In this document: piece after piece, positions 1,085 to 63,050 of the stretch
Position numbering within the stretch: the first letter of the stretch is position 1
How the letters are laid out: every line of letters starts with the position of its first letter
Origin: an uncultured Bacilli bacterium
GTDB lineage: Bacteria > Bacillota_I > Bacilli_A > RF39 > UBA660
Direction of reading: 5' to 3'
Assembly: GCA_934096805.1 (NCBI GenBank)
Contig: CAKOMW010000002.1
Coordinates: 139,736 to 203,735 of the forward strand
Length of the DNA: 64,000 nucleotides
Notes under the pieces: generated by a model
Told to the model about the DNA's origin: nothing
The model's input: the letters and a program-made list of their open reading frames with translations, nothing else
Databases searched by the model: none
Program-made: the position numbers and the translations under genes

Positions 1085-1260
1085 TGCATGATGTAACTAT
1101 ATACTATATAAAAGCACAATGCAAATGAGCAAAAATGACATTTGGTATAAAAAACAGTATACAAAATCAAGAATTGCTCTAAGACAAAAATAACTTTTAA
1201 TATAAAAAAAGCATACTAAAAAGTATTGTTTTGTATAAATTAAACAAATTTCTTGAAAAA
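1085..1260. repeat. degenerate solo copy of the Rpn-element leader
   Basis: tataaaagcacaatgcaaatgagc matches the leader core tataaaaacacaatgcaaatgagcaa found upstream of every Rpn-family ORF in the window; no associated ORF. Confidence 0.35.
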
Positions 1261-1379
1261 GAAGTTTTTTTGTATTAAAATTAAACTATAAAAACTAAAG
1301 AGGAGGACAGGTGTAAACAAAAAATCTACGCATAACATATAAACACCTAATAAGTAATATGGTAAACAAATATTCGTCT

Positions 1380-1389
1380 GGGGGGGGGG
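1380..1389 (+). repeat. poly-G homopolymer (10 G) separating an upstream ATG (1359) from the copy-A reading frame
   Basis: Seen directly. ATG at 1359 is in frame 0 and stops at 1401. The long ORF is open from 1366 in the +1 frame and encodes a signal-anchor TM segment (KTIKIISIIILLILIVISISFALG) before the annotated ATG at 1582. 11 G or 8 G would fuse ATG-1359 to the long frame. Confidence 0.6.
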
Positions 1390-1581
1390 CAAAATACTAC
1401 TAACCCTATAAATAAGAAAGGGAAAACAATAAAAATAATATCAATAATAATACTTTTAATACTAATAGTAATTAGTATATCTTTTGCATTAGGAAATATT
1501 GATATAAATATACTAGGAAGAAGAAATATAAAAATATCTAAATGCGAACTAGATATAAACTTTAAAGAAAGTGAAGAACTA

Positions 1582-2802
1582 ATGCTAGTAAGTAAATATC
1601 CCATATCAAAAGAAGAAGCATTAAAGTATAATGCAAAAGAAATAAATATAACAAACAATTCTACATGTGATACAGCTTATTATAAAGTAACAATAAAAGA
1701 CTTAGTAAATTCATCTATAAATAAAGATAAGATTAACTATCAAGTAATAGATAAAAGTACAAATACAGAAACAATAGATAAAAACCCAGATAACTTTAAT
1801 ATAAGTGATTCACTTACTAAAGGAAATACCAAAACATATACAATAAGACTATGGATAGATGAAAGTGCAACCAATACAGATTTATTTATAAATGGAAATA
1901 CAACAAAACCAATAGAATATAAATATGCACTTAACATAGAATCAAGTGATGAAGAGATAAAAGGAGCAGGCATGACAGCAACAGAATTTGCCCAAGCAAA
2001 TGTAGGACAAAATGGCCTAGAACTAGTAACTCATACAATAGATAATACCCTTCAAGTAGATAATAAATTTGCAACAGAATATAGATACAGAGGAGGAGAC
2101 TCAGTAGTAAAGAACTATGTAACATTTAATAATGAAATATGGAGAATAATAGGAATAATACCAACTGAAGATACCTCAGGTAATGTAGAAAATAGAATTA
2201 AGATAATAAGAGATACTTCAATAGGAAATATGAAATGGAATACAAATGATACTAATGATTGGACAAGTGCAACTTTAAATACATACTTAAATAATGATTA
2301 TTATAATACGTTAACAAGTGATGCCAAAAACATGATAGGAACAACAAAATACTATCTTGGAGGATATAACTCTGCAGGTATAACATCTGATGTAATGTGG
2401 CAATATGAAAGAAAGAATGATGCTAATCGAAGTGGATATTATTATGGTACAAATCCAATAATGCAAAATGATGCGAATAAAAAGATAGCAATAATGTATG
2501 CCAGTGATTATGGATATGGAGCATCAAAAGAATGTACAAGTAATGTAGGTGATTATGGGAACAATGCAAGTTGTAAAACAACAAATAATTGGTTAGACAA
2601 AAGTCAAGATACATGGTTGCTTCCGCAGTATTCAGACCTTTCCAACTATGCTTTCCGTGTGAACTCGGCTGGCGATGTCAGTAACAACAGCGTCGACGGC
2701 AGCTACGAACGTGCGGTCCGCCCAGTCCTAAGTCTGTCATCTAACGTAAAGATCTCAGGTGGAGAAGGGACTTTCAGTAAACCATACACGTTGTCACAAT
2801 AA
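1582..2802 (+). CDS. Surface protein paralog A with C-terminal C-type-lectin-like domain (currently N-terminally truncated / phase-OFF). The open frame extends back to 1366
   Basis: C-terminal 250 aa about 85-90 percent identical to 49720-51150 (TEYRYRGGDSVVKNYVTFNNE...AVRPVLSLSSNVKISGGEGT); GC-rich 3' end with hypervariable NNC-codon block at 2644-2712. Confidence 0.75.
   Translation: MLVSKYPISKEEALKYNAKEINITNNSTCDTAYYKVTIKDLVNSSINKDKINYQVIDKSTNTETIDKNPDNFNISDSLTKGNTKTYTIRLWIDESATNTDLFINGNTTKPIEYKYALNIESSDEEIKGAGMTATEFAQANVGQNGLELVTHTIDNTLQVDNKFATEYRYRGGDSVVKNYVTFNNEIWRIIGIIPTEDTSGNVENRIKIIRDTSIGNMKWNTNDTNDWTSATLNTYLNNDYYNTLTSDAKNMIGTTKYYLGGYNSAGITSDVMWQYERKNDANRSGYYYGTNPIMQNDANKKIAIMYASDYGYGASKECTSNVGDYGNNASCKTTNNWLDKSQDTWLLPQYSDLSNYAFRVNSAGDVSNNSVDGSYERAVRPVLSLSSNVKISGGEGTFSKPYTLSQ
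2644..2712 (+). other. hypervariable block (DGR VR-like) in copy A
   Basis: 69 nt differing at about half of positions from the equivalent block of copy B, while the following 40 nt are identical; 13 of 23 codons are NNC (aac, ggc, gtc, agc, gac, tac...). Confidence 0.55.
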
Positions 2803-2858: not shown

Positions 2859-3117
2859 TGAGGTTATTCTTTTCGGGGGCCCAAGTAACCTCATATTATT
2901 GTGTCAAAAACAAATGATGAAGACGGAAATATATTGTTTTTTAAAGAGAGTTAGTGGTAGGTGTAAACTAATAAAAAAATATATTTCAGATCACTTCTGA
3001 TGTGTTTTATTAAAAGTAAAAACGGTTACGCGTTATAGTATTGAGTAAAAAAATAAGGTGGTACCACGAACATTTCGTCCTTTGGTAACATCTTTTTATT
3101 TTTAAGGAGGAGTTAAT
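2859..3117 (+). promoter_or_regulatory. T-box riboswitch leader of ileS
   Basis: about 260-nt leader; AGAGA box (ttaaagagagttagtgg), T-box core aaggtggtaccacg at 3055-3068, terminator hairpin plus ctttttattttt before the RBS aaggagg. Confidence 0.7.
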
Positions 3118-6100
3118 ATGTTTAAAGAATTAAAGAAAGGACAAATAAGTGAAATTGAAGCATTTTATTCTGAATTTTGGGAAGAAGATAATGTTTTACA
3201 AAAGAGTATAGATAAAAATGATAAATATTTTGTGTTTTATGATGGTCCAGCAACTGCAAATGGGTTTCCGGGGCTTCATCATATGGTTGCTAAGTTTTTG
3301 AAAGATAGTTTTTGTAAGTATAAAACAATGCAAGGTTATAAAGTGCTTAGAAAAGTAGGATGGGATACTCATGGTTTACCTGTTGAACTTGCTGTGGAAA
3401 AAGAATTAGGTTTTAAGTCTAAGACTGATATTGAAAAATATGGTATCGAAGCATTTAATAAAAAATGTAAAGAATCAGTATGGAAAAATGAAAAAGCCTT
3501 CAGTGATTTGACTACCAAAATGGGGCAATTTATAGATTTGAAACATCCATATGTTACATATGATAATAATTACATTGAAACAGAATGGTGGATCTTAAAG
3601 AAATTCTTTGATGAAGGGTTATTTTATGAAGGACATAAGATATTGCCATATTGTCCTAGATGTGGAACAGGTCTTGCATCGCATGAAGTAGCACAGGGAT
3701 ACAAAGAAGTGACTGTAGATACAGTAACTGTACCATTTAAATTAAAAGATGAAGATTGTTACTTCTTAGTATGGACAACAACTCCTTGGACATTATTAGC
3801 AAATGTTGGGTTGTGCGTTAATCCAGAAGAAGAATATATAAAAGCAGAATCAATGGGTTATAATTTTATTGTTGCTAAAAAGCTAGCTAATAAAGTGCTA
3901 GGGGATGATTATAAAGTCCTTGAAACATATAAGGGCAAAGAACTAGAACATAAAGAATATGAACAATTAATATCAGAAATTTCAGTAAATAAAAAAGCTT
4001 TCTTTGTATGTTGCGATAACTATGTAACAATGGAAGATGGTACAGGAATAGTACACCTTGCACCGGCATTCGGAGCTGATGATGCCTTAGTAGGAAGAAA
4101 ATACAATCTTCCATATATAAATCCAGTCGGGGAAGATGGATGCTATACAGAAGGACCATGGAAAGGAACACTTGTTTTTGATGCAGATCTTGAAGTTATA
4201 AAATACTTAAAAGCAAATGATAAATTATTCAAAAAACAAAAAATAGTACACAACTATCCTCACTGCTGGAGATGTTCAACACCACTTATTTATTACTCTA
4301 AACCAAGCTATTACTTAGAAGTAACTAAAATAAAAGACAAAATAATCGAGGCTAATAAAACTGTAAAATGGCATCCAGCATATGTTGGAGAAAAACGTTT
4401 TGGTAACTGGTTAGAAAATTTAAATGACTGGGCGATATCAAGAAACAGATATTGGGGTACACCACTTCCTTTATGGAAATGTGAATGTGGCCATACTCAT
4501 ATGATTGGAAGCAGAGAAGAACTCGTAAACCTTGCTTTAGAAGACATAGATACTTCAATTGATTTACATAGACCATACGTTGACAATGTTCATATTAAAT
4601 GTGATAAATGTGGTAAAACTATGACTAGAACAACAGATGTAATTGATTGTTGGTTTGATTCTGGTTCAATGCCATTTGCCCAATACCATTATCCATTTGA
4701 AAACAAAGAATTATGGGAAACCCAATTTCCAGCAGATTTCATTGCCGAAGGAATAGATCAAACAAGAGGATGGTTCTATACACTTCTAGTAATATCAACA
4801 TTTTTAACAGGAAAAGCACCATACAAAAATGTTTTAGTAAATGACTTATTACTTGACAGTGAAGGCAAAAAAATGTCTAAATCGAAAGGAAATATCGTTG
4901 AACCATTTACTACTATGAAAGAATACGGAGCAGATACAGTAAGATTCTATCTTCCATATGTATCACCAGTATGGACACCACTTAAATTTGATGTAAATGG
5001 TCTAAAAGAAGTACATTCTAAGTTCTTTAACCCTCTTAAAAACACATATTCATTCTTTACAATTTATGCTAATATTGATAATATCGATCCTAGAGAATAC
5101 AATATAGAATACAAAGATTTAGAAGAAATAGATAAATGGTTATTTTCAAAACTAAATAAATTAATCAAAAATGTAACAGATTCATATGAAGAATATGACT
5201 TAAATAAAGTAGTAAAGTATTTAACAGACTTTGTAAGTGAAGATTTATCTAATTGGTATATTAGAAGAAACAGAAAAAGATTCTGGGGAAATGAATTAAA
5301 TAACTCTAAAAAATGTGTTTATTATACAACATATAAAACATTATTAGATTTATCAAAGTTAATTGCTCCAATAACACCATTTATATCCGAAGAAATATAT
5401 CAAAACTTAACAAATGAAGAATCTGTTCATCTAAGTGATTTCCCAAAATATAATAAAGAATTATTAAACGAAGAAATAGAAAAGAAAATGGACTTAGTAA
5501 GAGATTTAATATCACTAGGAAGAAATGCTAGAGAAGAAAAGAAAATAAAAGTTAGGCAACCAATCAAAGAAATAATCCTTGATGGTAAAAACAAAGATAT
5601 TTTAAGTGATTTAACTGACTTAATAAAAGAAGAATTAAATGTCAAAGAAATAGTCTTTGAAGATGATTTGTCAAAATATATGAACTTTGTTATAAAACCA
5701 AACTTTAAAGAAGCCGGAAAAGTACTTGGTTCAAAAATGAAAGACTTTACTAACTTTTTAAGTGATTTAAACGAAGAACAAATAAATAAATTAAGAAATA
5801 ACGAACCAGTCACATTTGAAAACCTAGAAATAACAAGTAACTTAATAGATATAAAAATTATTTCTAAAGAAGGATTCAACACAGCAAGCTTAGATAATAA
5901 TTTTATAATATTAAATACAACTTTAGATGAAGAATTAATAAAAGAAGGATATGCTAGAGAATTTGTTTCAAAGATACAAAACTTAAGAAAAGAAAAAGAC
6001 TTTGATATAGAAAATAGAATAAAATTATCTTATAATTCAAATGATTATTTTGATGATATAGTAAAAGAATTTAATGACTATATTAAAAAAGAAACTTTAT

Positions 6101-6189
6101 CACTAGAAATAGTAAAAGATAATAATCTTAATAACAAACAACTAGTAAATGATATTGAAGTAGCATTTGATGTTGAGAAGATAAAATAA
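3118..6189 (+). CDS. ileS: isoleucine--tRNA ligase
   Basis: 1023 aa; HMGH-type motif (PGLHHMVAK), KMSKS (KKMSKSKGN), zinc-binding CxxC pairs; class I aaRS architecture. Confidence 0.95.
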   Translation: MFKELKKGQISEIEAFYSEFWEEDNVLQKSIDKNDKYFVFYDGPATANGFPGLHHMVAKFLKDSFCKYKTMQGYKVLRKVGWDTHGLPVELAVEKELGFKSKTDIEKYGIEAFNKKCKESVWKNEKAFSDLTTKMGQFIDLKHPYVTYDNNYIETEWWILKKFFDEGLFYEGHKILPYCPRCGTGLASHEVAQGYKEVTVDTVTVPFKLKDEDCYFLVWTTTPWTLLANVGLCVNPEEEYIKAESMGYNFIVAKKLANKVLGDDYKVLETYKGKELEHKEYEQLISEISVNKKAFFVCCDNYVTMEDGTGIVHLAPAFGADDALVGRKYNLPYINPVGEDGCYTEGPWKGTLVFDADLEVIKYLKANDKLFKKQKIVHNYPHCWRCSTPLIYYSKPSYYLEVTKIKDKIIEANKTVKWHPAYVGEKRFGNWLENLNDWAISRNRYWGTPLPLWKCECGHTHMIGSREELVNLALEDIDTSIDLHRPYVDNVHIKCDKCGKTMTRTTDVIDCWFDSGSMPFAQYHYPFENKELWETQFPADFIAEGIDQTRGWFYTLLVISTFLTGKAPYKNVLVNDLLLDSEGKKMSKSKGNIVEPFTTMKEYGADTVRFYLPYVSPVWTPLKFDVNGLKEVHSKFFNPLKNTYSFFTIYANIDNIDPREYNIEYKDLEEIDKWLFSKLNKLIKNVTDSYEEYDLNKVVKYLTDFVSEDLSNWYIRRNRKRFWGNELNNSKKCVYYTTYKTLLDLSKLIAPITPFISEEIYQNLTNEESVHLSDFPKYNKELLNEEIEKKMDLVRDLISLGRNAREEKKIKVRQPIKEIILDGKNKDILSDLTDLIKEELNVKEIVFEDDLSKYMNFVIKPNFKEAGKVLGSKMKDFTNFLSDLNEEQINKLRNNEPVTFENLEITSNLIDIKIISKEGFNTASLDNNFIILNTTLDEELIKEGYAREFVSKIQNLRKEKDFDIENRIKLSYNSNDYFDDIVKEFNDYIKKETLSLEIVKDNNLNNKQLVNDIEVAFDVEKIK

Positions 6190-7393: not shown

Positions 7394-8086
7394 ATGAATA
7401 AAAAAGGATTTACATTTGTTGAACTATTAGCGGTAATAGTAATTTTATCTATAATTACAACCCTTACAGTTGTATCTTACAAACACTATGCTAAGCAAGC
7501 AAAAGAAGATGAACTTATTGCTTTAAGAGGAACAGTTGAATCAGCTTATAATAATTACAGGTCAAAAATGTTATATACAAATGGAATAGTAAACAATGAA
7601 GTGAAATTCGGATTTTTAGTTGAGAATAACTATATTCCTAAAAATTTCAATTACAATGATGTTAAATTTAGTGCCAATGATTTAAGTGATAGTAAAATTA
7701 AAGTAGTAACCAAAGGAGAAATGCTAAATGAAACATATTTGAATGGAGGAAGCTGTAACTTTACCGAAATGATAAAATATGGAATATGTAAAACAGATAC
7801 TGATGATAGTTCAGTTGAAGTAAAAGAAGAAAATGGTCAAAAACATGTTGAAGGAACTAGTGATAACGCTACTTACTGTCTCACAGAAGATGCATCATCC
7901 GCTACCACAAATTACTGTCTAGATAATGGGAAAAAAGTCTTTGTAGTACCTTCAGAAGATGAAGCCTATTGTTTATATGTTAAGCATACCAATAATGGAA
8001 CTCGAAAAGAACTAATAAATGATTTTTTAGACTGTAATAAACCATATTGCATGACTAAAGAATTAAGGGAACAAAAATGCAAATAA
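7394..8086 (+). CDS. type IV prepilin-like protein (class III signal, GFTFVE), Cys-rich C-terminal domain
   Basis: MNKKGFTFVELLAVIVILSIITTL is a canonical prepilin peptidase cleavage/methylation motif; stop overlaps mutL start. Confidence 0.7.
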   Translation: MNKKGFTFVELLAVIVILSIITTLTVVSYKHYAKQAKEDELIALRGTVESAYNNYRSKMLYTNGIVNNEVKFGFLVENNYIPKNFNYNDVKFSANDLSDSKIKVVTKGEMLNETYLNGGSCNFTEMIKYGICKTDTDDSSVEVKEENGQKHVEGTSDNATYCLTEDASSATTNYCLDNGKKVFVVPSEDEAYCLYVKHTNNGTRKELINDFLDCNKPYCMTKELREQKCK

Positions 8087-9837
8087 TAAAAATAATGGAT
8101 GAAGACTTATCCAACAAAATAGCAGCAGGTGAAGTAGTAGAATCCTTAATGAGCGTAGTAAAAGAATTAGTGGAAAACTCAATTGACGCTAACTCTTCAA
8201 TAATAAAAATTTATCTTTCAGATTCTGGTATTAAATCCATAAAAGTAGTAGACAATGGAAAAGGAATGTCAAGAGAAGATGCCAATTGTTGTATTCTTAG
8301 ACATGCCACTAGTAAGCTATATACTAAAGATGACCTATTTAACATCAATACTTTAGGCTTTCGAGGAGAAGCCATGCCTTCAATTGCTAGTGTTTCCCAA
8401 ATGATTATCAAAACCAGTGATGGTGAAGAATCTACAAAAATAATAGTAAAGGGAGGTACAGTTGAAGAAATAAAATCAACAGATTTAAGAGGAGGCACCA
8501 CCATTGAAGTAAGTGACATTTTCTATAATACTCCTGCTAGGTTTAAATATCTAAAAAGCTTACATACAGAACTCGCAAACATAACAAACTATGTAAACAA
8601 AATGGCTTTAGCTAACCCTGACATATCATTTTATCTTGAAAACGATGGAAAAGTTTTATTAAACACAGATGGTTCCTCTAATCTCTTAAAAGTAATTAAT
8701 AGCATTTATGGACTTGAAGTAACAAAAAAAATGTTAAAAGTAGAAAGATCAAGCAGTGACTATAAAGTAACTGGATATATTTCTTATCCCGAAATTAATC
8801 GTTCTAGTAGAAACAATATAACCCTTTTAGTAAATGGAAGATATGTTAGAAACAATGATATTACAAGAACAATACTTGATGGCTATCACACATATTTACC
8901 AATCAACCGTTATCCTATTGTTGTATTAAATATTGAAGCCGATCCTTATATAATTGATGTAAATATTCATCCCACTAAAATGGATATCAAATTCTCTAAA
9001 ATAGAAGAATTAAAAGAAATGATTTTTTCCTTAGTTAGTGAGTCATTAAATAAACTCACCTTAATACCAGAGGCAAAATACGAACCACGTCCTATATCTA
9101 ATATTGAAACAGTAACTACTTTAAATGACAAAATAGACTTTAAAGATGAAAAAACTTGCGATACACTAGAAGAAAAAGTGAAATTTGAAGAACTAAACTT
9201 TGATTTTGATAATGACTATACTATTAGTGATAGAAAAGAAGAATATCATAAAGAAAAAATGAAAAAAATAAAACCACTTGCTCTTGCTCATGGAACATAT
9301 ATAATTGGTGAAAACGAAGATGGAATATTTTTAATAGACCAACATGCTGCCAATGAAAGAATCAATTATGAATACTATCTAAAAGAACTAGGAAAAGAAA
9401 ACACTCTTACAAAAGACCTTTTAATACCAATAAAAATTGAACTTTCTAATAACGAATATCTTAGTTTAAAAGAAAATATAAATGTTTTAGATAAAATGGG
9501 CTTTGTTTATGAAGAATTTGGTTTTAATACACTTATTATAAGAAGCCATCCTGCTTGGATTAAACAAGGCTATACAAACGAAACAATTAGAAAAATAATT
9601 GAAGTTATAATTGAAAAAAAAGAATTTAGTAAAGAAAAATTTTTAGAACGTGTTGCCATAACTTTAGCATGCAAAATGTCCATTAAAGCCAATGAACACA
9701 TCTCAGACGAAGAAATGAACTCTTTACTAAATAGATTAAGAGATACAAACAATCCTTTCACTTGTCCACATGGAAGACCCACAATTATTACATTTTCTAT
9801 TTATGAATTAGAAAAAATGTTTAAGAGGGTTGTATAA
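8077..9837 (+). CDS. mutL: DNA mismatch repair protein MutL
   Basis: IAAGEVVESLMSVVKELVENSIDA GHKL ATPase motifs; conserved C-terminal dimerisation/endonuclease region (LIDQHAANERINYE, ACKMSIKAN, FTCPHGRP). Confidence 0.9.
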   Translation: MQIIKIMDEDLSNKIAAGEVVESLMSVVKELVENSIDANSSIIKIYLSDSGIKSIKVVDNGKGMSREDANCCILRHATSKLYTKDDLFNINTLGFRGEAMPSIASVSQMIIKTSDGEESTKIIVKGGTVEEIKSTDLRGGTTIEVSDIFYNTPARFKYLKSLHTELANITNYVNKMALANPDISFYLENDGKVLLNTDGSSNLLKVINSIYGLEVTKKMLKVERSSSDYKVTGYISYPEINRSSRNNITLLVNGRYVRNNDITRTILDGYHTYLPINRYPIVVLNIEADPYIIDVNIHPTKMDIKFSKIEELKEMIFSLVSESLNKLTLIPEAKYEPRPISNIETVTTLNDKIDFKDEKTCDTLEEKVKFEELNFDFDNDYTISDRKEEYHKEKMKKIKPLALAHGTYIIGENEDGIFLIDQHAANERINYEYYLKELGKENTLTKDLLIPIKIELSNNEYLSLKENINVLDKMGFVYEEFGFNTLIIRSHPAWIKQGYTNETIRKIIEVIIEKKEFSKEKFLERVAITLACKMSIKANEHISDEEMNSLLNRLRDTNNPFTCPHGRPTIITFSIYELEKMFKRVV

Positions 9838-38087: not shown

Positions 38088-39270
38088 AGACAAAAAAAGA
38101 AATAGAAATAATCTATTTCAATTGGTTTAGTTCCTCTAATGAAAGACCTGTACATTCTGAAATATCAGTAATATCATAACCTTTTTGAAGCATTTTAAGT
38201 GCAGTTTCTTTGATGCCTTCATCATGTCCTATATCGTGTCCTTCTTTAAAGCCTTTTTCTCTGTACTCATCAATTTCCGCTAAACGAAGCTTTTCATCAT
38301 GTAACTCTTTATCATACATTCCTATTACTTCATCTTGTTCACTTGCTTCTTTTGATTCTTTAACATACTTTTCCATTATCTCATCACCCTTACTTAAATC
38401 TTTAAGAAGTTGATTATCATTTTCATTAAATATTAATAATAACTTCTCATATAGTTTAAGTTTATTATAATCTTTTTTTCTTATATTTGGCAAGTATATA
38501 TTAATAATTCTTATCTTATTACTATATATTTGAAAATCATTAATATCTTTGGGTATATGATTAATATTTGTTATATAGCATTCTTCTAGAACATCTTTTC
38601 TACCTCTGAATCTAAAGTTATTTATGTTTATTTGAATTACTTCATTAAAGTTATACTTCTTTCCTCTTTTCATATTTGCACTATATAAAGAAAACATATA
38701 ACCTAGATTTCTTTCTAAACTAGACTTTGAAGTATTATTATTAACTTCAACATTAAGTATCTTACCTTTAATCTTACACAATAAATCTACTGTCTTATTA
38801 CTTTCTTCATTTTTATACTTATCTATATTATTTTTTATAAACTTAGTATTTTTTAATACCTCATTATAATCCTCATTAAATATAGAAGCAATTAAATAAC
38901 AGATATACTCCATTCTAGATTCATTATTAATCATAGTCTTAAACATAGAATCAGATACAATTGGTATTTTATAGCCTTTGTAATAGTCAAGTAACTTATA
39001 ACTATTTGTTTTAGATATTTCTTTATCTAAAGTACATTCTCTAAGATCTAACATAATTTTCACCTCCTTTCATAGAAATATTTACCCCTTTTCTAATTCA
39101 ATATATACCATATAAAAACGCAATGCAAATGAACAATTTTAAGTTTTAAATACACAAAAAAGAACCAAAACAGATATTTTCCTTAAGGGAATTTTCTTAT
39201 TTGATTCTTATTTTTTTATTAAAAATATTGTTTTATATAGAATTTAAAAAACTTATACTTTTTAATTACT
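38088..39270 (-). mobile_element. Rpn-family element copy 2 (subfamily II)
   Basis: same leader (39064-39270) and 3' hairpin gaaatagaaataatctatttc (38099-38119) + T-run as the other copies. Confidence 0.6.
38113..39054 (-). CDS. Rpn/YhgA-like PD-(D/E)XK nuclease / putative transposase, subfamily II
   Basis: IPIVSDSMFKTMINNE, VDLLCKIKGKILNVEVNNN, C-terminal GFKEGHDIGHDEGIKE...TGLSLEELNQLK; ATG 7 nt after aggaggtg. Confidence 0.6.
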   Translation of the reverse strand: MLDLRECTLDKEISKTNSYKLLDYYKGYKIPIVSDSMFKTMINNESRMEYICYLIASIFNEDYNEVLKNTKFIKNNIDKYKNEESNKTVDLLCKIKGKILNVEVNNNTSKSSLERNLGYMFSLYSANMKRGKKYNFNEVIQININNFRFRGRKDVLEECYITNINHIPKDINDFQIYSNKIRIINIYLPNIRKKDYNKLKLYEKLLLIFNENDNQLLKDLSKGDEIMEKYVKESKEASEQDEVIGMYDKELHDEKLRLAEIDEYREKGFKEGHDIGHDEGIKETALKMLQKGYDITDISECTGLSLEELNQLK

Positions 39271-40474: not shown

Positions 40475-41221
40475 CTATTCTGCAACTTGTTCTCCTTTTA
40501 TCTTAACTTTAAACTGATAATTAGTATTACTTGAAGAAACTACTGCGTGAGAACTACCCCATACTTCTCCAGCAGCCGTACATGTAGCTTTTGTTGTATA
40601 AGTAGTATCACTACATACCATATCTTTTTCCTCAGTATTTAACTTTATATCATTATTTCCATTTCCACTTACCCAAGCTTTTAGGACATATGATGCTTTA
40701 TCAGTCTTAGAAAATACTCCATCATCTAGTACAAATTCATTAAAGAACCCATTACTAGATACTTTAGATTGTAAACTTGAAATAGCAACACCAGTAGTAG
40801 CAGTACCTATAATATATTCTTGTTTCTCTGTACCATTTTCAGTATATTTTTTTAGTAAATTAATTTTCACATCGTCACTTGTTATCCCTTCATTACTAAT
40901 GATATCCAAACCTAAATCATATTTTAATATAGCTTCTCCATTAATAGTAGAAACTACATCAAAAGTATATGCTTTATCATCAGTAATACTTGTACCAACT
41001 GCATCAGTAACAGGCTTTTGATCACTTAAAATCATAGCTTTTTCGTTTGCAAAATTAAGTTCTAACTTACCAGAAATAAGTTCATTTTCACTAGTTCCGA
41101 TGAAATTAGCATAATAGTAGGCAAAAGTAGAGCCTAAGACCACTAATACTAAGATAATTGTAGATATAATAACTATCATTTTATCCTTTTTTGATTCTTT
41201 TACTTGTTCCATATATAACAC
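40475..41221 (-). CDS. short member of the surface-protein paralog family (N-terminal module only)
   Basis: anchor KMIVIISTIILVLVVLGSTFAYYYANFIG and YVLKAWVSGN motif shared with copies A, B and C; lacks the lectin-like C-terminus. Confidence 0.5.
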   Translation of the reverse strand: MLYMEQVKESKKDKMIVIISTIILVLVVLGSTFAYYYANFIGTSENELISGKLELNFANEKAMILSDQKPVTDAVGTSITDDKAYTFDVVSTINGEAILKYDLGLDIISNEGITSDDVKINLLKKYTENGTEKQEYIIGTATTGVAISSLQSKVSSNGFFNEFVLDDGVFSKTDKASYVLKAWVSGNGNNDIKLNTEEKDMVCSDTTYTTKATCTAAGEVWGSSHAVVSSSNTNYQFKVKIKGEQVAE

Positions 41222-46003: not shown

Positions 46004-47210
46004 ATATTCACTTTTTATTCATAAAAACAAAAGAAATAGAGATTAATCTATTTCAATTTTTGTAGTTCATCTAATGAAAGACCTGTATATTTGGAAACAA
46101 CTTCTAAATCAACATTATCTTGAATCATTTGTTTAGCTATGCTTACTCTTTCTTCTTTTCTGCCTTCGCTACGACCTTGTTGTATTCCTTGTTGTATTCC
46201 ATTCTCATTAGCTTCTCTTATCTCTGATTTTCTTAATCTTTCTTCGTGTAACTCCTTATCATACATGCCTATTACTTCATCTTCTTCACTTGCTTTTCTA
46301 GAATCATCAATATATTCTTTCATAATCTTATCACCCTTACTTAATTCATTAAGAATATTATTATCATTTTCATTAAATACTAATAATAACTTCTCATATT
46401 CCTCAAGTTTATTATAATCTTTTTTTCTTATATTTGGCAAGTAAATATTATAAATATGTATTTTATTTGTATACACTTCTTCACTGTCTTTTAGATTAAC
46501 TATCATATACTCATCTAATACTTCGTTTTTATCTTGAAATGTAAAGTTATTTATGTTAATTTGAATACAAGTTTCAAAGAAATAATCATCTCCTTTAGTC
46601 ATTCCACCATTATATAATGAAAACATATAACCTAGATTTCTTGCTAAACTTGTCTTGGATGCATTTTTATTCATTTCTACATTGACTACTACATCATCTA
46701 TTCTACATAAATAGTCTACTGTCTTTCTAGATTTATTTTCTTTTTCTTCATCTATATTAGCTTTTATTAAAGTAGTATTATTATAGATTTCATTAAAGTC
46801 TTTCTTTAGTAGAAGTGCAATTAAATAGCATCCATATTTCTTTCTTGATTCATTATAAAACATTGTTCTAAACATTGCATCTGATACAATTGGTATCTTA
46901 TAACCTTCATATCTTTTTTCAAGTTCATAGGCATCTTTTTCAGACATAGCTTTATCTAAAACAGCTTTCTTATTACCAATAAGATTCATACTTTTCCCTC
47001 CTTTCAAAACCACTATATACCATATAAAAACACAATGCAAATGAGTAATTTTAAGTTTTGAACATAGAAAAAAGAACCAAAATAGGTATTTCACTTAAGG
47101 GAATTTTTTATTTTGATTCTTATTTTTTATCAAAAATATTGTTTTATATATAATTTAAAAAACTTATACTTTTTTATTCTTTTTATAAGTATCAATCAAT
47201 ACTTAGAGTG
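46004..47210 (-). mobile_element. Rpn-family element copy 3 inserted between spoIIGA and sigE
   Basis: 3' hairpin gaaatagagattaatctatttc 46033-46054 + T-run; leader 46990-47210 including ttataagtatcaatcaatacttagagtg. Confidence 0.65.
46048..46989 (-). CDS. Rpn/YhgA-like PD-(D/E)XK nuclease / putative transposase, subfamily I
   Basis: about 95 percent identical to 16547-17488 and 61874-62827 except in the C-terminal G-rich repeat region (GIQQGIQQGRSEGRKEERVSIAKQ). Confidence 0.65.
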   Translation of the reverse strand: MNLIGNKKAVLDKAMSEKDAYELEKRYEGYKIPIVSDAMFRTMFYNESRKKYGCYLIALLLKKDFNEIYNNTTLIKANIDEEKENKSRKTVDYLCRIDDVVVNVEMNKNASKTSLARNLGYMFSLYNGGMTKGDDYFFETCIQININNFTFQDKNEVLDEYMIVNLKDSEEVYTNKIHIYNIYLPNIRKKDYNKLEEYEKLLLVFNENDNNILNELSKGDKIMKEYIDDSRKASEEDEVIGMYDKELHEERLRKSEIREANENGIQQGIQQGRSEGRKEERVSIAKQMIQDNVDLEVVSKYTGLSLDELQKLK

Positions 47211-49719: not shown

Positions 49720-51150
49720 TCAACTGATACTAAGAGTATACGGACTACTTGAAGTTCCTTCTCCACCTGAAATCTTTACGTTAGATGACAGACTTAGGAC
49801 TGGGCGGACCGCAAACTCGTAGTTGTAGAAGTAGTTGGCGTTAAGGACACCGCCGGCATCAGCAACAAGGAAAGCGCCGTGGGAAATGTCTGAATACTGC
49901 GGAAGTAACCATGTATCTGCACTTTTATCTAACCAATTATTTGTTGTTTTACAACTTGCAGAGTTATTATATTTATATAAGTTCTGTGTACATTCTTTTG
50001 ATGCTCCATATCCATAATCACTTGCATACATTATAGCTATCTTTTTAGATGAATCACTTTGCATTATTGGATTTGTTCCATAATAATATCCTGTTCTATT
50101 GGCATCATTCTTTCTTTCATATTGCCACATTACATCTGATGTAATTTCTGGATAATTATTATATCCTCCAAGATAATATTTTGTTGTACCTATCATGTTT
50201 TTTGCATCAGTAGTCAAGGTATTATAATAATCATTATTTAAGTATGTATTTAATGTTGCAGTTGTCCAGTTATTTGTAATTTTTGTAGTCCAATGCATAT
50301 TCCCTATGGATTCATTTCTTACTATTTTAATTCTATTTTCTACATTGCCATCTGTATCTTCAGTAGGAATTACTCCGATGATTCTCCATACCTCATTGTT
50401 AAATGTTACATAGTTTTTTACTACTGAGTCTCCTCCCCTGTATCTGTACTCTGTAGCAAAGTTGTCATCTACTTGGAGAGTATCATCTATTCCGTGAGTA
50501 ATTTTTTCAATACCATTTGTGCCTACTGGTATATTTAATAATGGTACCATTTCTTTTGGAGCATCCTCATTATTCACATTAACTCTAAACTTATAACTAT
50601 AAGTAGCTTTGTTAAGTTTATCTGCATCAAAGTTATAGTCTAACCAAGCTCTTAGTCTATATGTTGTTTCATGTTCATTTACCGAGGTTGTAAATGTTTC
50701 TTCTTGTGATTTTATTACATAACTATTTAACTTATTTATAGTGGTAGGTCCAGTTACTAATGTTTCTGTATTGTTTTCTACTTTAGTAAGATATACTTTT
50801 ATATTACTATCTGTAAAACTAGTATAATTATTATTAATAGTTAATGGTTCTAAAACTATATTATAATTCATTTTTCTATCTTCATTAGTGGTCATCATAC
50901 TATATACTTTAAATTCAAAGTAATTAGAACTATTAATACCTTTCTTATCACTAGTAGGAAGAACATTAGTAAGACTTATTTCATTTGTTTCAGCATAAGA
51001 CATCTTTACTTGTCCAGTTGTTATTTTATTACCTAAAGTTGCTAAACCTACATTATATACTGCATAACCTGCGAATGATATAACACTAATCATAAAAAGC
51101 GACAGTGTTATCATCATTAATATTTTTTTACTTTTACTCATATTATCCAT
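49720..51150 (-). CDS. Surface protein paralog B with C-terminal C-type-lectin-like domain
   Basis: signal-anchor ILMMITLSLFMISVISFAGYAVYNVG; C-terminal half homologous to copy A; hypervariable block at 49813-49881. Confidence 0.75.
   Translation of the reverse strand: MDNMSKSKKILMMITLSLFMISVISFAGYAVYNVGLATLGNKITTGQVKMSYAETNEISLTNVLPTSDKKGINSSNYFEFKVYSMMTTNEDRKMNYNIVLEPLTINNNYTSFTDSNIKVYLTKVENNTETLVTGPTTINKLNSYVIKSQEETFTTSVNEHETTYRLRAWLDYNFDADKLNKATYSYKFRVNVNNEDAPKEMVPLLNIPVGTNGIEKITHGIDDTLQVDDNFATEYRYRGGDSVVKNYVTFNNEVWRIIGVIPTEDTDGNVENRIKIVRNESIGNMHWTTKITNNWTTATLNTYLNNDYYNTLTTDAKNMIGTTKYYLGGYNNYPEITSDVMWQYERKNDANRTGYYYGTNPIMQSDSSKKIAIMYASDYGYGASKECTQNLYKYNNSASCKTTNNWLDKSADTWLLPQYSDISHGAFLVADAGGVLNANYFYNYEFAVRPVLSLSSNVKISGGEGTSSSPYTLSIS
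49813..49881 (-). other. hypervariable block (DGR VR-like) in copy B
   Basis: 14 of 23 codons NNC (cac, ggc, ttc, gcc, gtc, aac, tac ...); flanked 3' by 40 nt identical to copy A (gcggtccgcccagtcctaagtctgtcatctaacgtaaagat). Confidence 0.55.
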
Positions 51151-61845: not shown

Positions 61846-63050
61846 AGTGTAAAATAAAAGAAATAGAATTAATCTATTTCAATTTTTGTAGTTCTTCAAA
61901 TGAAAGACCTGTGCATTCTGAGATGATGTTTAAATCAATGTTTTTTTGAAGTAGTTTAAGAGCAGCTTCTTTAGCTTTTTCTTTTTTTCCTTGCTGTATT
62001 CCTTCTTTGATGCCTTCACTACGACCTTGTTGTATTCCATTCTCATTAGCTTCTCTTAACTCTGATTTTCTTAATCTTTCTTCGTGTAACTCTTTATCAT
62101 ACATTCCTATTACTTCATCTTCTTCACTTGCTCTTCTAGAATCATCAATATATTCTTTCATAATCTTATCACCCTTGCTTAATTCATTAAGAATATTATT
62201 ATCATTTTCATTAAATACTAATAATAACTTCTCATATTCCTCAAGTTTATTATAATCTTTTTTTCTTATATTTGGCAAGTAAATATTATAAATATGTATT
62301 TTATTTGTATACACTTCTTCACTGTCTTTTAGATTAACTATCATATACTCATCTAATACTTCGTTTTTATCTTGAAATGTAAAGTTATTTATGTTAATTT
62401 GAATACAAGTTTCAAAGAAATAATCATCTCCTTTAGTCATTCCACCATTATATAATGAAAACATATAACCTAGATTTCTTGCTAAACTTGTCTTGGATGC
62501 ATTTTTATTCATTTCTACATTGACTACTACATCATCTATTCTACATAAATAGTCTACTGTCTTTCTAGATTTATTTTCTTTTTCTTCATCTATATTAGCT
62601 TTTATTAAAGTAGTATTATTATAGATTTCATTAAAGTCTTTCTTTAGTAGAAGTGCAATTAAATAGCATCCATATTTCTTTCTTGATTCATTATAAAACA
62701 TTGTTCTAAACATTGCATCTGATACAATTGGTATTTTATAACCATCATATCTATCTTCAAGTTCATAAGCATCATTTTTAGACATAGCTTTATCTAAAAC
62801 AGCTTTCTTATCACCAATAAGATTCATACTTTTCCCTCCTTTCAAAACCAATATATAACATATAAAAATGCAATGCAAATGAGTAATTTTAAGTTTTAAA
62901 TACATAAAAAAGAACCAAAATAGATATTTCCCTTAAGAGAATTTTCTTATTTGATTCTTATTTTTTTATTAAAAATATTGTTTTATATATAATTTAAGAA
63001 ACTTATACTTCTTAATTATTTTTATAAGTATTAATCAATACTTAGAGTGT
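61846..63050 (-). mobile_element. Rpn-family element copy 4 inserted between the hrcA promoter/CIRCE region and argS
   Basis: 3' hairpin gaaatagaattaatctatttc 61860-61880; leader 62828-63050 including ttataagtattaatcaatacttagagtg. Confidence 0.65.
61874..62827 (-). CDS. Rpn/YhgA-like PD-(D/E)XK nuclease / putative transposase, subfamily I
   Basis: ATG 62827 with RBS ggaggg; C-terminal repeat variant GIQQGRSEGIKEGIQQGKKEKAKE. Confidence 0.65.
   Translation of the reverse strand: MNLIGDKKAVLDKAMSKNDAYELEDRYDGYKIPIVSDAMFRTMFYNESRKKYGCYLIALLLKKDFNEIYNNTTLIKANIDEEKENKSRKTVDYLCRIDDVVVNVEMNKNASKTSLARNLGYMFSLYNGGMTKGDDYFFETCIQININNFTFQDKNEVLDEYMIVNLKDSEEVYTNKIHIYNIYLPNIRKKDYNKLEEYEKLLLVFNENDNNILNELSKGDKIMKEYIDDSRRASEEDEVIGMYDKELHEERLRKSELREANENGIQQGRSEGIKEGIQQGKKEKAKEAALKLLQKNIDLNIISECTGLSFEELQKLK

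Follow-up and report, generated by a model that had tools for sequence, protein, structure and literature searches.

Homopolymer contingency loci are textbook features of Campylobacter, Haemophilus, Neisseria and Helicobacter. The poly-G loci of Campylobacter jejuni, which include capsule and flagellar modification genes, carry tracts of G8-11 in the 5' part of the open reading frame (ORF) within an AT-rich genome; a change of one G toggles the frame, the ON length is specific to the gene, and many surface loci are affected in a species that is without MutS and MutL. The opa genes of Neisseria form a family of surface adhesins with a CTCTT repeat in the leader-peptide coding region of each copy, and the copies switch independently, with most of them off. 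In lic1 of Haemophilus influenzae, CAAT repeats are combined with start codons in two frames. Here we describe a run of ten G (G10) in the N-terminal coding region of a gene for a predicted lectin-like surface protein, gene A, which lies in a stretch of 64,000 nt from an uncultured Bacilli bacterium (contig CAKOMW010000002.1; the whole stretch is called the window below). We read this run, with a probability of about 0.75, as a slipped-strand phase-variation switch that is present here at an OFF length, and of which each tract-bearing paralog of gene A has its own.

Literature searches returned no description of a homopolymer contingency locus in uncultured Firmicutes-type gut commensals, and no report of a homopolymer switch on a target of a diversity-generating retroelement (DGR) or in this lineage.

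Frames and tract of gene A

The start region of gene A, read off the window sequence from position 1359, is ATGGTAAACAAATATTCGTCT-G10-CAAAATACTACTAA. An earlier note on this DNA had placed an ATG at 1359, the G run at 1380-1389 and a stop at 1401, and these positions were reproduced exactly. The same holds for the long +1 frame that it reported as open from 1366, which encodes KGKTIKIISIIILLILIVISISFALGNID and extends to 2802. This frame begins with QNTTNPINKKGKTIK, continues with a hydrophobic helix and stays intact for about 470 codons beyond the tract. Upstream of 1582 it contains no ATG, GTG or TTG, and the coding region of the helix (about 1417-1491) precedes that position; the product that starts at ATG-1582 is therefore without the membrane segment, in agreement with the anchorless protein that the note had expected.

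Among simulated tract lengths from 6 to 14, only G6, G9 and G12 joined ATG-1359 to the long ORF, with 479, 480 and 481 codons before the stop, respectively. At G8 and G11 a stop was reached after 16-17 codons, and at G10 after 14. A change in repeat number thus toggles the frame of gene A in silico, which is ON at G9 and G12 and OFF at G10 and G11. The ON lengths originally proposed for this tract, G11 and G8, run into these stops and were ruled out by the simulation.

The window has a GC content of 26.6%, and the G10 run is the sole G/C run of more than 5 nt in the 64 kb. The number of G runs of at least 10 nt expected in the window ranges from 5e-5 (independent bases) to 2e-4 (first-order model), and a value this low (no more than 2e-4) rules out a chance origin of the tract. 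From the tract to 1582 the frame of the gene runs through 64 codons without a stop, as compared with 15 and 7 stops in the other two frames, and such a stop-free state was reached in 0.075% of local shuffles (p ~7.5e-4).

Tract length and frame state in related loci

The DNA compared comprised 32 related loci (L001-L032) together with L122 and L123 (GTDB species representatives titled 'uncultured Bacilli bacterium', Hadza metagenome-assembled genomes (MAGs); other metagenome contigs; ENA assemblies). A database search with the G9-restored protein yielded more than 2,400 relatives, all of them from gut metagenomes or MAGs, and the full-length homologues (475-492 aa) covered 100% of the restored query. 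The N-termini of the full-length homologues include MINKYSSGGGQNTT, MNKYSSGGGQNTT and MINKYSSGGGGNIT, and their start classes are M(I/V)NKYSSGGGQNTT..., MNKYSSGGGQ..., MINKYSSGGGGNIT... and MTNNNSYGGGQNTY.... Further N-terminal classes are MGGGQNTY... (42 of the 179 retrieved proteins), many homologues of 404-418 aa that are called from the internal methionine of the window copy (MLVSKYPISKEE...), and paralogs that have unrelated N-termini and no glycine run.

Across 133 kb of related loci there are 23 G/C runs of at least 7 nt, and all of them lie at the homologous gene position, 18-21 nt past an ATG or GTG (about seven codons) and immediately before CAAAATACT...AACCC. Regarding the 28 homologous sites (the window and 27 others), the tract is G9 in one, G10 in 21 and G11 in six, and the start before it mostly has a canonical Shine-Dalgarno (SD) sequence. 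The frame after the tract was open in 19 of the 19 measured sites, over 417-653 aa in 17 of them; the other two, L014 and L015, are truncated at the end of the contig and are open over 223-224 aa. A gene-body frameshift was not found in any measured locus, and the A/T runs flanking the tract showed no length variation in the alignment. A frameshift private to gene A was ruled out by the occurrence of the same tract, with open ORFs downstream, in the 27 other sites. Contig L024 (1-25) begins exactly at the tract, in the garbled form GGCCGCCCCAATACT; this seems to be a place where assemblies break or contain errors.

A syntenic pair of loci with the same neighbours, L002 and L031, was recovered from different samples; over 3,456 nt the two reach 99.94% identity and differ by one single-nucleotide polymorphism and the tract only, which is G11 in L002 (off, 410-aa call) and G10 in L031 (on, 484 aa, MINKYSSGGGVNST...). 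Such a difference of one G between near-identical loci means that tract length does change. L001 (G11, on) and L032 (G10, off) are 99.4% identical, and their differences are confined to the first 500 nt of the gene (L001 2031-2522), including the tract and the codons that follow it; such a pattern suggests that another paralog donated this patch by gene conversion. All frame states occur within protein clusters formed at 90% identity. The 15 listed members of the P0069 cluster are nine proteins of 582 aa (MGGGQ...), three of 588 aa (MTNINSYGGGQ...) and three of 512-514 aa that start at an internal methionine, the P0017 cluster has four proteins of 410 aa and one full-length protein of 484 aa, and in the P0002 cluster two proteins have 482 aa and one has 408 aa.

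The ON length varies by locus, being G9 in L015, G10 in L031 and G11 in L001. It is not universal because of small differences after the tract, and a context-dependent ON length is as expected if mutation, not design, sets the length. An interruption that keeps the frame is how contingency tracts usually become 'locked'. L028 has such an interrupted tract (GGGGGGAGGG, positions 415-424), which is in frame with the start (product MKNNYSLGGRDTT...), and P0004 (MKNNYSLGRDTT...) represents a similar allele; L028 is thus a probable phase-locked ON derivative.

In 14 loci (L003-L008, L011, L014, L015, L019-L023) the codon before the tract is TAT, and its AT forms a second ATG with the first G of the tract, which is in frame at G10 (tcgtATGGGGGGGGGCAA, giving MGGGQ...; e.g., L004 1498-1509). 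In these loci the ATG with the SD is in frame at G9, the SD-less ATG alone is in frame at G10, and no start is in frame at G11. The second ATG has no SD, and ribosomes coming from the upstream start would read across it. The window copy has TCT instead of TAT, which makes the equivalent codon CTG and leaves G10 without a canonical start in frame.

Upstream of 17 of the 17 aligned tract-bearing loci the promoter block CTTGAAAAAG...TA(T/A)AAT is kept, in the form TTGAAA-17-TA(A/T)AAT. At the start codon of the family ATG and GTG interchange, and indels ahead of the tract are 3 nt long. Two ribosome-binding layouts occur. In fifteen paralogs the layout is compact, with GGAGG 7 nt before the ATG or GTG (e.g., L027, which carries protein P0124, with AAGGAGGAAAACTATGAACAAATATTCGTCT-G10). 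In the window and ten other sites an SD and a GTG-TAA are followed by a spacer of about 45 nt and then the ATG, and the SD region of the window has its homologue in the SD and ATG/GTG start of paralogs with the compact layout (e.g., L014 and L027). The ON alleles of L001 and L031 and the locked-ON allele of L028 share the layout of the window, which suggests that its ATG is used. It is a possibility, suggested by base pairing in this region, that a hairpin brings the SD near ATG-1359 and thereby forms a 'split' ribosome-binding site. At the equivalent place L030 carries an inverted repeat of another sequence, AGAAATTT/AAATTTCT, so that five of the six pairs in the RNAalifold consensus fold are compensatory. 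An Rfam scan at the tract found no known RNA.

Phase variation and its alternatives

If gene A is phase-variable, its tract would act as a hypermutable homopolymer in codons seven to ten of a surface-protein gene. One G gained or lost by slipped-strand mispairing in replication would shift the frame between ATG-1359 and the remainder of the gene, with its basic N-tail, membrane helix, beta-sandwich and DUF6273 lectin-like domain. In the present G10 state, ribosomes from ATG-1359 would halt after 14 codons, and the remaining canonical in-frame start, at 1582, would lie behind the helix. With one G fewer (G9) or two more (G12), an anchored protein of 480 or 481 aa would be made, its cytoplasmic N-tail containing the tract as Gly3 or Gly4. 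Promoter and tract are separate for each of the tract-bearing paralogs, and the subset of the family that is expressed would therefore change within a cell lineage. We infer that the changes arise by replication slippage, at high and reversible frequency within a population; at G9, protein would presumably be made from ATG-1359 in spite of its being without an SD at normal spacing. The contingency switch proposed in the earlier note is thus supported by the 28 homologous sites at G9-G11, the one-G pair of L002 and L031, the mixed 90% clusters, the intact ORFs and L028.

Several observations weigh against such a switch. The length distribution is narrow, with 75% of the sites (21/28) at G10, only four of the 28 uninterrupted sites are in frame with the upstream SD-proximal start (L001, L015, L031 and the locus of P0177, the last inferred from the protein), and tract length is the same within each of the five most similar locus pairs (95-97% flank identity); switching may therefore be slower than in classical loci, or G10 itself may be favoured. 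The locus of gene A itself is represented at the DNA level by G10 only, in the window and in L123, a second sample of this locus with 97% identity and the same sigma-factor neighbour. The truncated 406-aa product P0001 is identical on six contigs, which indicates the off frame without giving the tract length; exact-product look-ups for the 406-aa ORF, P0001 and P0070 returned no record. ATG-1359 has no SD within 15 nt, the AGGAGG sitting 53 nt upstream, and the hairpin that might bridge this distance is weakly supported: the compensatory pairs come from L030, and the single-sequence fold of 1290-1420 as RNA was not above shuffles (z = 0.35). Finally, a MutL homologue (MutL_C, DNA_mis_repair, HATPase) is encoded at 8077-9837 (+), 6.7 kb from the tract, so that mismatch repair is not obviously absent and the background is not a repair-deficient one of the Campylobacter type.

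The predominance of G10 would also be expected from programmed recoding, an unlikely explanation that nevertheless survives best among the rivals. Here G10 would be stable by design, and a low, fixed output of full-length protein would be obtained via RNA polymerase slippage or +1 ribosomal frameshifting, in the TAT paralogs also via the second ATG. A homopolymer permits perfect re-pairing after a slip of +1 or -1, and in the TAT subfamily G10 puts tcgtATGGGG... in frame, in keeping with the share of MGGGQNTY... calls given above. However, the CTG of the window copy leaves it with no canonical in-frame start at G10, and the second ATG of the TAT paralogs, itself without an SD, is read across by ribosomes from the SD-ATG. 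Moreover, the ON alleles at G9, G10 or G11 according to context, together with the interrupted tract that is in frame, argue that direct in-frame translation is clearly used, and a stable length is contradicted by the loci of 99.94% identity that stand one G apart.

We consider it improbable that gene A is a pseudogene with a fixed frameshift and a functionless tract. The 470 codons past the tract are intact, the 64 codons ahead of 1582 are stop-free and conserved, intact ORFs lie behind out-of-frame tracts in about 20 other loci, and the tract would be expected to decay at 26.6% GC, yet it is uninterrupted. These points outweigh what such a loss would explain, namely the G10 found in both samples of the locus (window and L123), the truncated 406-aa product on six contigs and the lack of an SD near ATG-1359. 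A sequencing or assembly error, in which the true tract would be in frame (e.g., G9) and homopolymer miscalls would mimic both frameshift and polymorphism, is very improbable although long G runs are prone to error, the data all come from metagenome assemblies and the contig start of L024 is garbled, because the off-frame call recurs in independent assemblies (P0001 on six contigs, L123; 24/28 sites), the flanking A/T runs are constant, the gene bodies are free of frameshifts, the lengths lie on both sides of the mode, and products of each state occur on several contigs.

Protein family, variable block and known systems

The coordinates of gene A and its elements are summarized in Table 1. The restored protein gave a match to DUF6273 in Pfam that was barely over the threshold. 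An AlphaFold2 model computed from an alignment of 75 homologues had a mean predicted local distance difference test (pLDDT) score of 81 and was used in place of a model from 13 sequences (pLDDT 54). Its N-terminal helix (residues 20-44) is followed by a beta-sandwich (about residues 62-200) and a large domain at the C-terminus, and structural comparison revealed similarity to TvpA and C-type lectin domains. Paralog B (49720-51150, minus strand) is 52% identical to gene A over the full length including the anchor and has its own canonical SD-ATG, without a G tract. The homology of the anchor with those of paralogs, as claimed at first, thus holds for B; the similarity of 40475-41221 to gene A is weak (32% over 66 aa, E = 0.007).

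Table 1. Features of gene A in the window (positions are those of the window).
Feature	Position	Strand	Remarks
Sigma-70-type promoter TTGAAA-17 nt-TAAAAT of gene A	1253..1281	+	Consensus scan, 10/12 matches
Shine-Dalgarno AGGAGG (1301-1306), then GTG-TAA start-stop (1311-1316)	1301..1316	+	53 nt upstream of ATG-1359; read off sequence
Possible hairpin AGGTGT (1309-1314) / ACACCT (1343-1348) between SD and ATG	1309..1348	+	RNAalifold consensus stem, 6 pairs; tentative
Family start codon ATG-1359 and out-of-frame 14-codon peptide MVNKYSSGGGAKYY	1359..1403	+	TAA 1401-1403, present G10 state
Reading frame of gene A, stop 2800-2802; 480 aa if joined to ATG-1359 at G9	1366..2802	+	
Poly-G tract, 10 G, OFF length	1380..1389	+	Window sequence and frame simulation
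Coding region of N-terminal transmembrane helix (signal-anchor or signal peptide), basic KKGKTIK segment before	1417..1491	+	AlphaFold2 helix residues 20-44; paralog alignment
Beta-sandwich domain, ~residues 62-200	1543..1959	+	
Internal ATG, first canonical start of the gene frame at G10, giving a 406-aa protein without membrane helix	1582..1584	+	
DUF6273 domain, C-type-lectin-like fold	2224..2739	+	
Hypervariable block resembling a DGR variable region (VR), 50-55% GC, NNC codons	2626..2712	+	Substitutions among 13 family members are concentrated in this block
Nearly invariant GC-rich element GCGGTCCGCCCAGTCCT, like an initiation of mutagenic homing (IMH) element	2713..2729	+	Directly 3' of variable block; function by analogy

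Family genes are also found in tandem. L029 and L122 contain three each, and the arrayed genes have their own promoter and their own tract. Some array members have lost the coding sequence of the membrane helix behind the tract (CAAAATACTAATAATAAAATAAAAC...), and many longer paralogs (~560 aa; e.g., P0018, P0025) carry a dockerin domain (PF00404).

The window also contains three paralogous genes for a PD-(D/E)XK 'transposase' (PDDEXK_2) on the minus strand (38113-39063, 46048-47094 and 61874-62905), with repeated elements upstream of them. The 72-nt upstream element also occurs as a solo copy at 1096-1167, just before the promoter of gene A, and a similar sequence (CGCCCAAAGATACGTGCA...) precedes the lectin genes of L006, L008 and L015. 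Downstream of gene A, an ileS T-box leader (Rfam RF00230, 94.9 bits) at 2905-3085 (+) lies upstream of the isoleucyl-tRNA synthetase gene (3118-6189).

DUF6273 has been described as a C-type-lectin-like target domain of DGRs with the variable region at its C-terminal end (PMC10743442, PMC11792537). Over their last 780 nt, copies A and B have 82% identity, with the substitutions crowded into approximately 2626-2712. In the 13-member alignment of this block, codon positions 1 and 2 vary, the C at the third position is fixed and the flanks are invariant. Variability is thus located at the C-terminus of a C-type-lectin-like domain and follows an NNC pattern as would arise from the adenines of AAC codons in a template. 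The DGR-like block and GCGGTCCGCCCAGTCCT also occur in copy B (49746-49960, minus strand) and at the gene 3' ends of L001-L030.

A blastn search of the window and L001-L032 (with L122, L123 and the rest of the genome outside the search) found no second VR copy outside the gene 3' ends that could serve as a template repeat, and a motif scan of the window, L001-L032, L122 and L123 detected no ORF with a reverse-transcriptase-like Y[AVMIL]DD motif context. Of two pattern scans of viral contigs for a template or reverse transcriptase, one gave 0 hits and the other gave 89 chance hits in high-GC contigs, which had no similarity to the VR. Overall, neither the window nor ~166 kb of related flanks nor the viral contigs yielded a template repeat, a reverse transcriptase or an Avd, and the orthologous locus pairs examined showed no difference within the variable block. 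The NNC pattern fits adenine-directed mutagenesis but a template and reverse transcriptase were not found, which makes DGR targeting plausible and leaves it unproven. From the pattern in its 3' end, gene A is a plausible DGR target, for which a remote reverse transcriptase may exist. The suggestion of the earlier note that the protein is sequence-variable as well therefore stands as regards the block and the DUF6273 domain, but not as regards the retroelement.

A wider picture that would join both kinds of variation is tentative and, in our view, rather doubtful. It is a two-tier repertoire of about ten or fewer dispersed or tandem genes for anchored DUF6273 lectins, whose tips would be rewritten by a remote DGR and each of which would be gated by its own poly-G tract, some with three outputs (SD-ATG, tract-made SD-less ATG, off), so that a lineage would display a small, changing subset of receptors despite intact mismatch repair. 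If the DGR-like diversification is true, the on/off choice of paralogs would be combined with hypermutation of the binding site. If the switch is confirmed, tract length in reads would be an easily scored marker of surface variation in vivo in a lineage of the non-industrial gut, and the many 'anchorless' DUF6273 proteins of 406-418 aa in databases would be off-phase calls of anchored proteins of ~480 aa, which is a warning for annotation.

The known DGR targets with a DUF6273 or C-type-lectin fold (phage 'tentaclins', a Faecalibacterium prophage, T. denticola TvpA and Mtd of the Bordetella phage) resemble gene A in their C-terminal variable block, with NNC variability followed by an invariant GC-rich element; in contrast to these, the genes of the present family are chromosomal, dispersed and multi-copy, and no template, reverse transcriptase or Avd was found in the DNA searched. 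The N-terminal DUF6273 domain of the Thomasclavelia ramosa IgA peptidase (PDB 9qa6) is only 16% identical, and the M64 peptidase domain of that protein is absent from gene A. With regard to switching, the TAT subfamily is similar to lic1 of H. influenzae in having two starts in different frames that precede or overlap the repeat, so that two of the three frames could give a product, probably at different levels; the window copy differs by its CTG in place of the second ATG, and the lic1 repeat is a tetranucleotide. The opa family of Neisseria shares with the family described here the multigene organization of surface proteins with one repeat per copy near the N-terminus, but its repeat is a pentamer and not a homopolymer, the proteins are unrelated, and opa varies by recombination, as opposed to the DGR-like block found here. 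The poly-G loci of C. jejuni are similar in the intragenic 5' G run, the toggling of the frame by one G and the gene-dependent ON length, whereas the host here is a sporulating, uncultured gut member of the Bacilli of the Gram-positive type that encodes MutL, and its tracts are all in one paralogous family, at one homologous codon position. The mechanism is of a well-known kind; new are the lineage of the host, the family of proteins concerned and the probable coupling to hypervariation of the DGR type.
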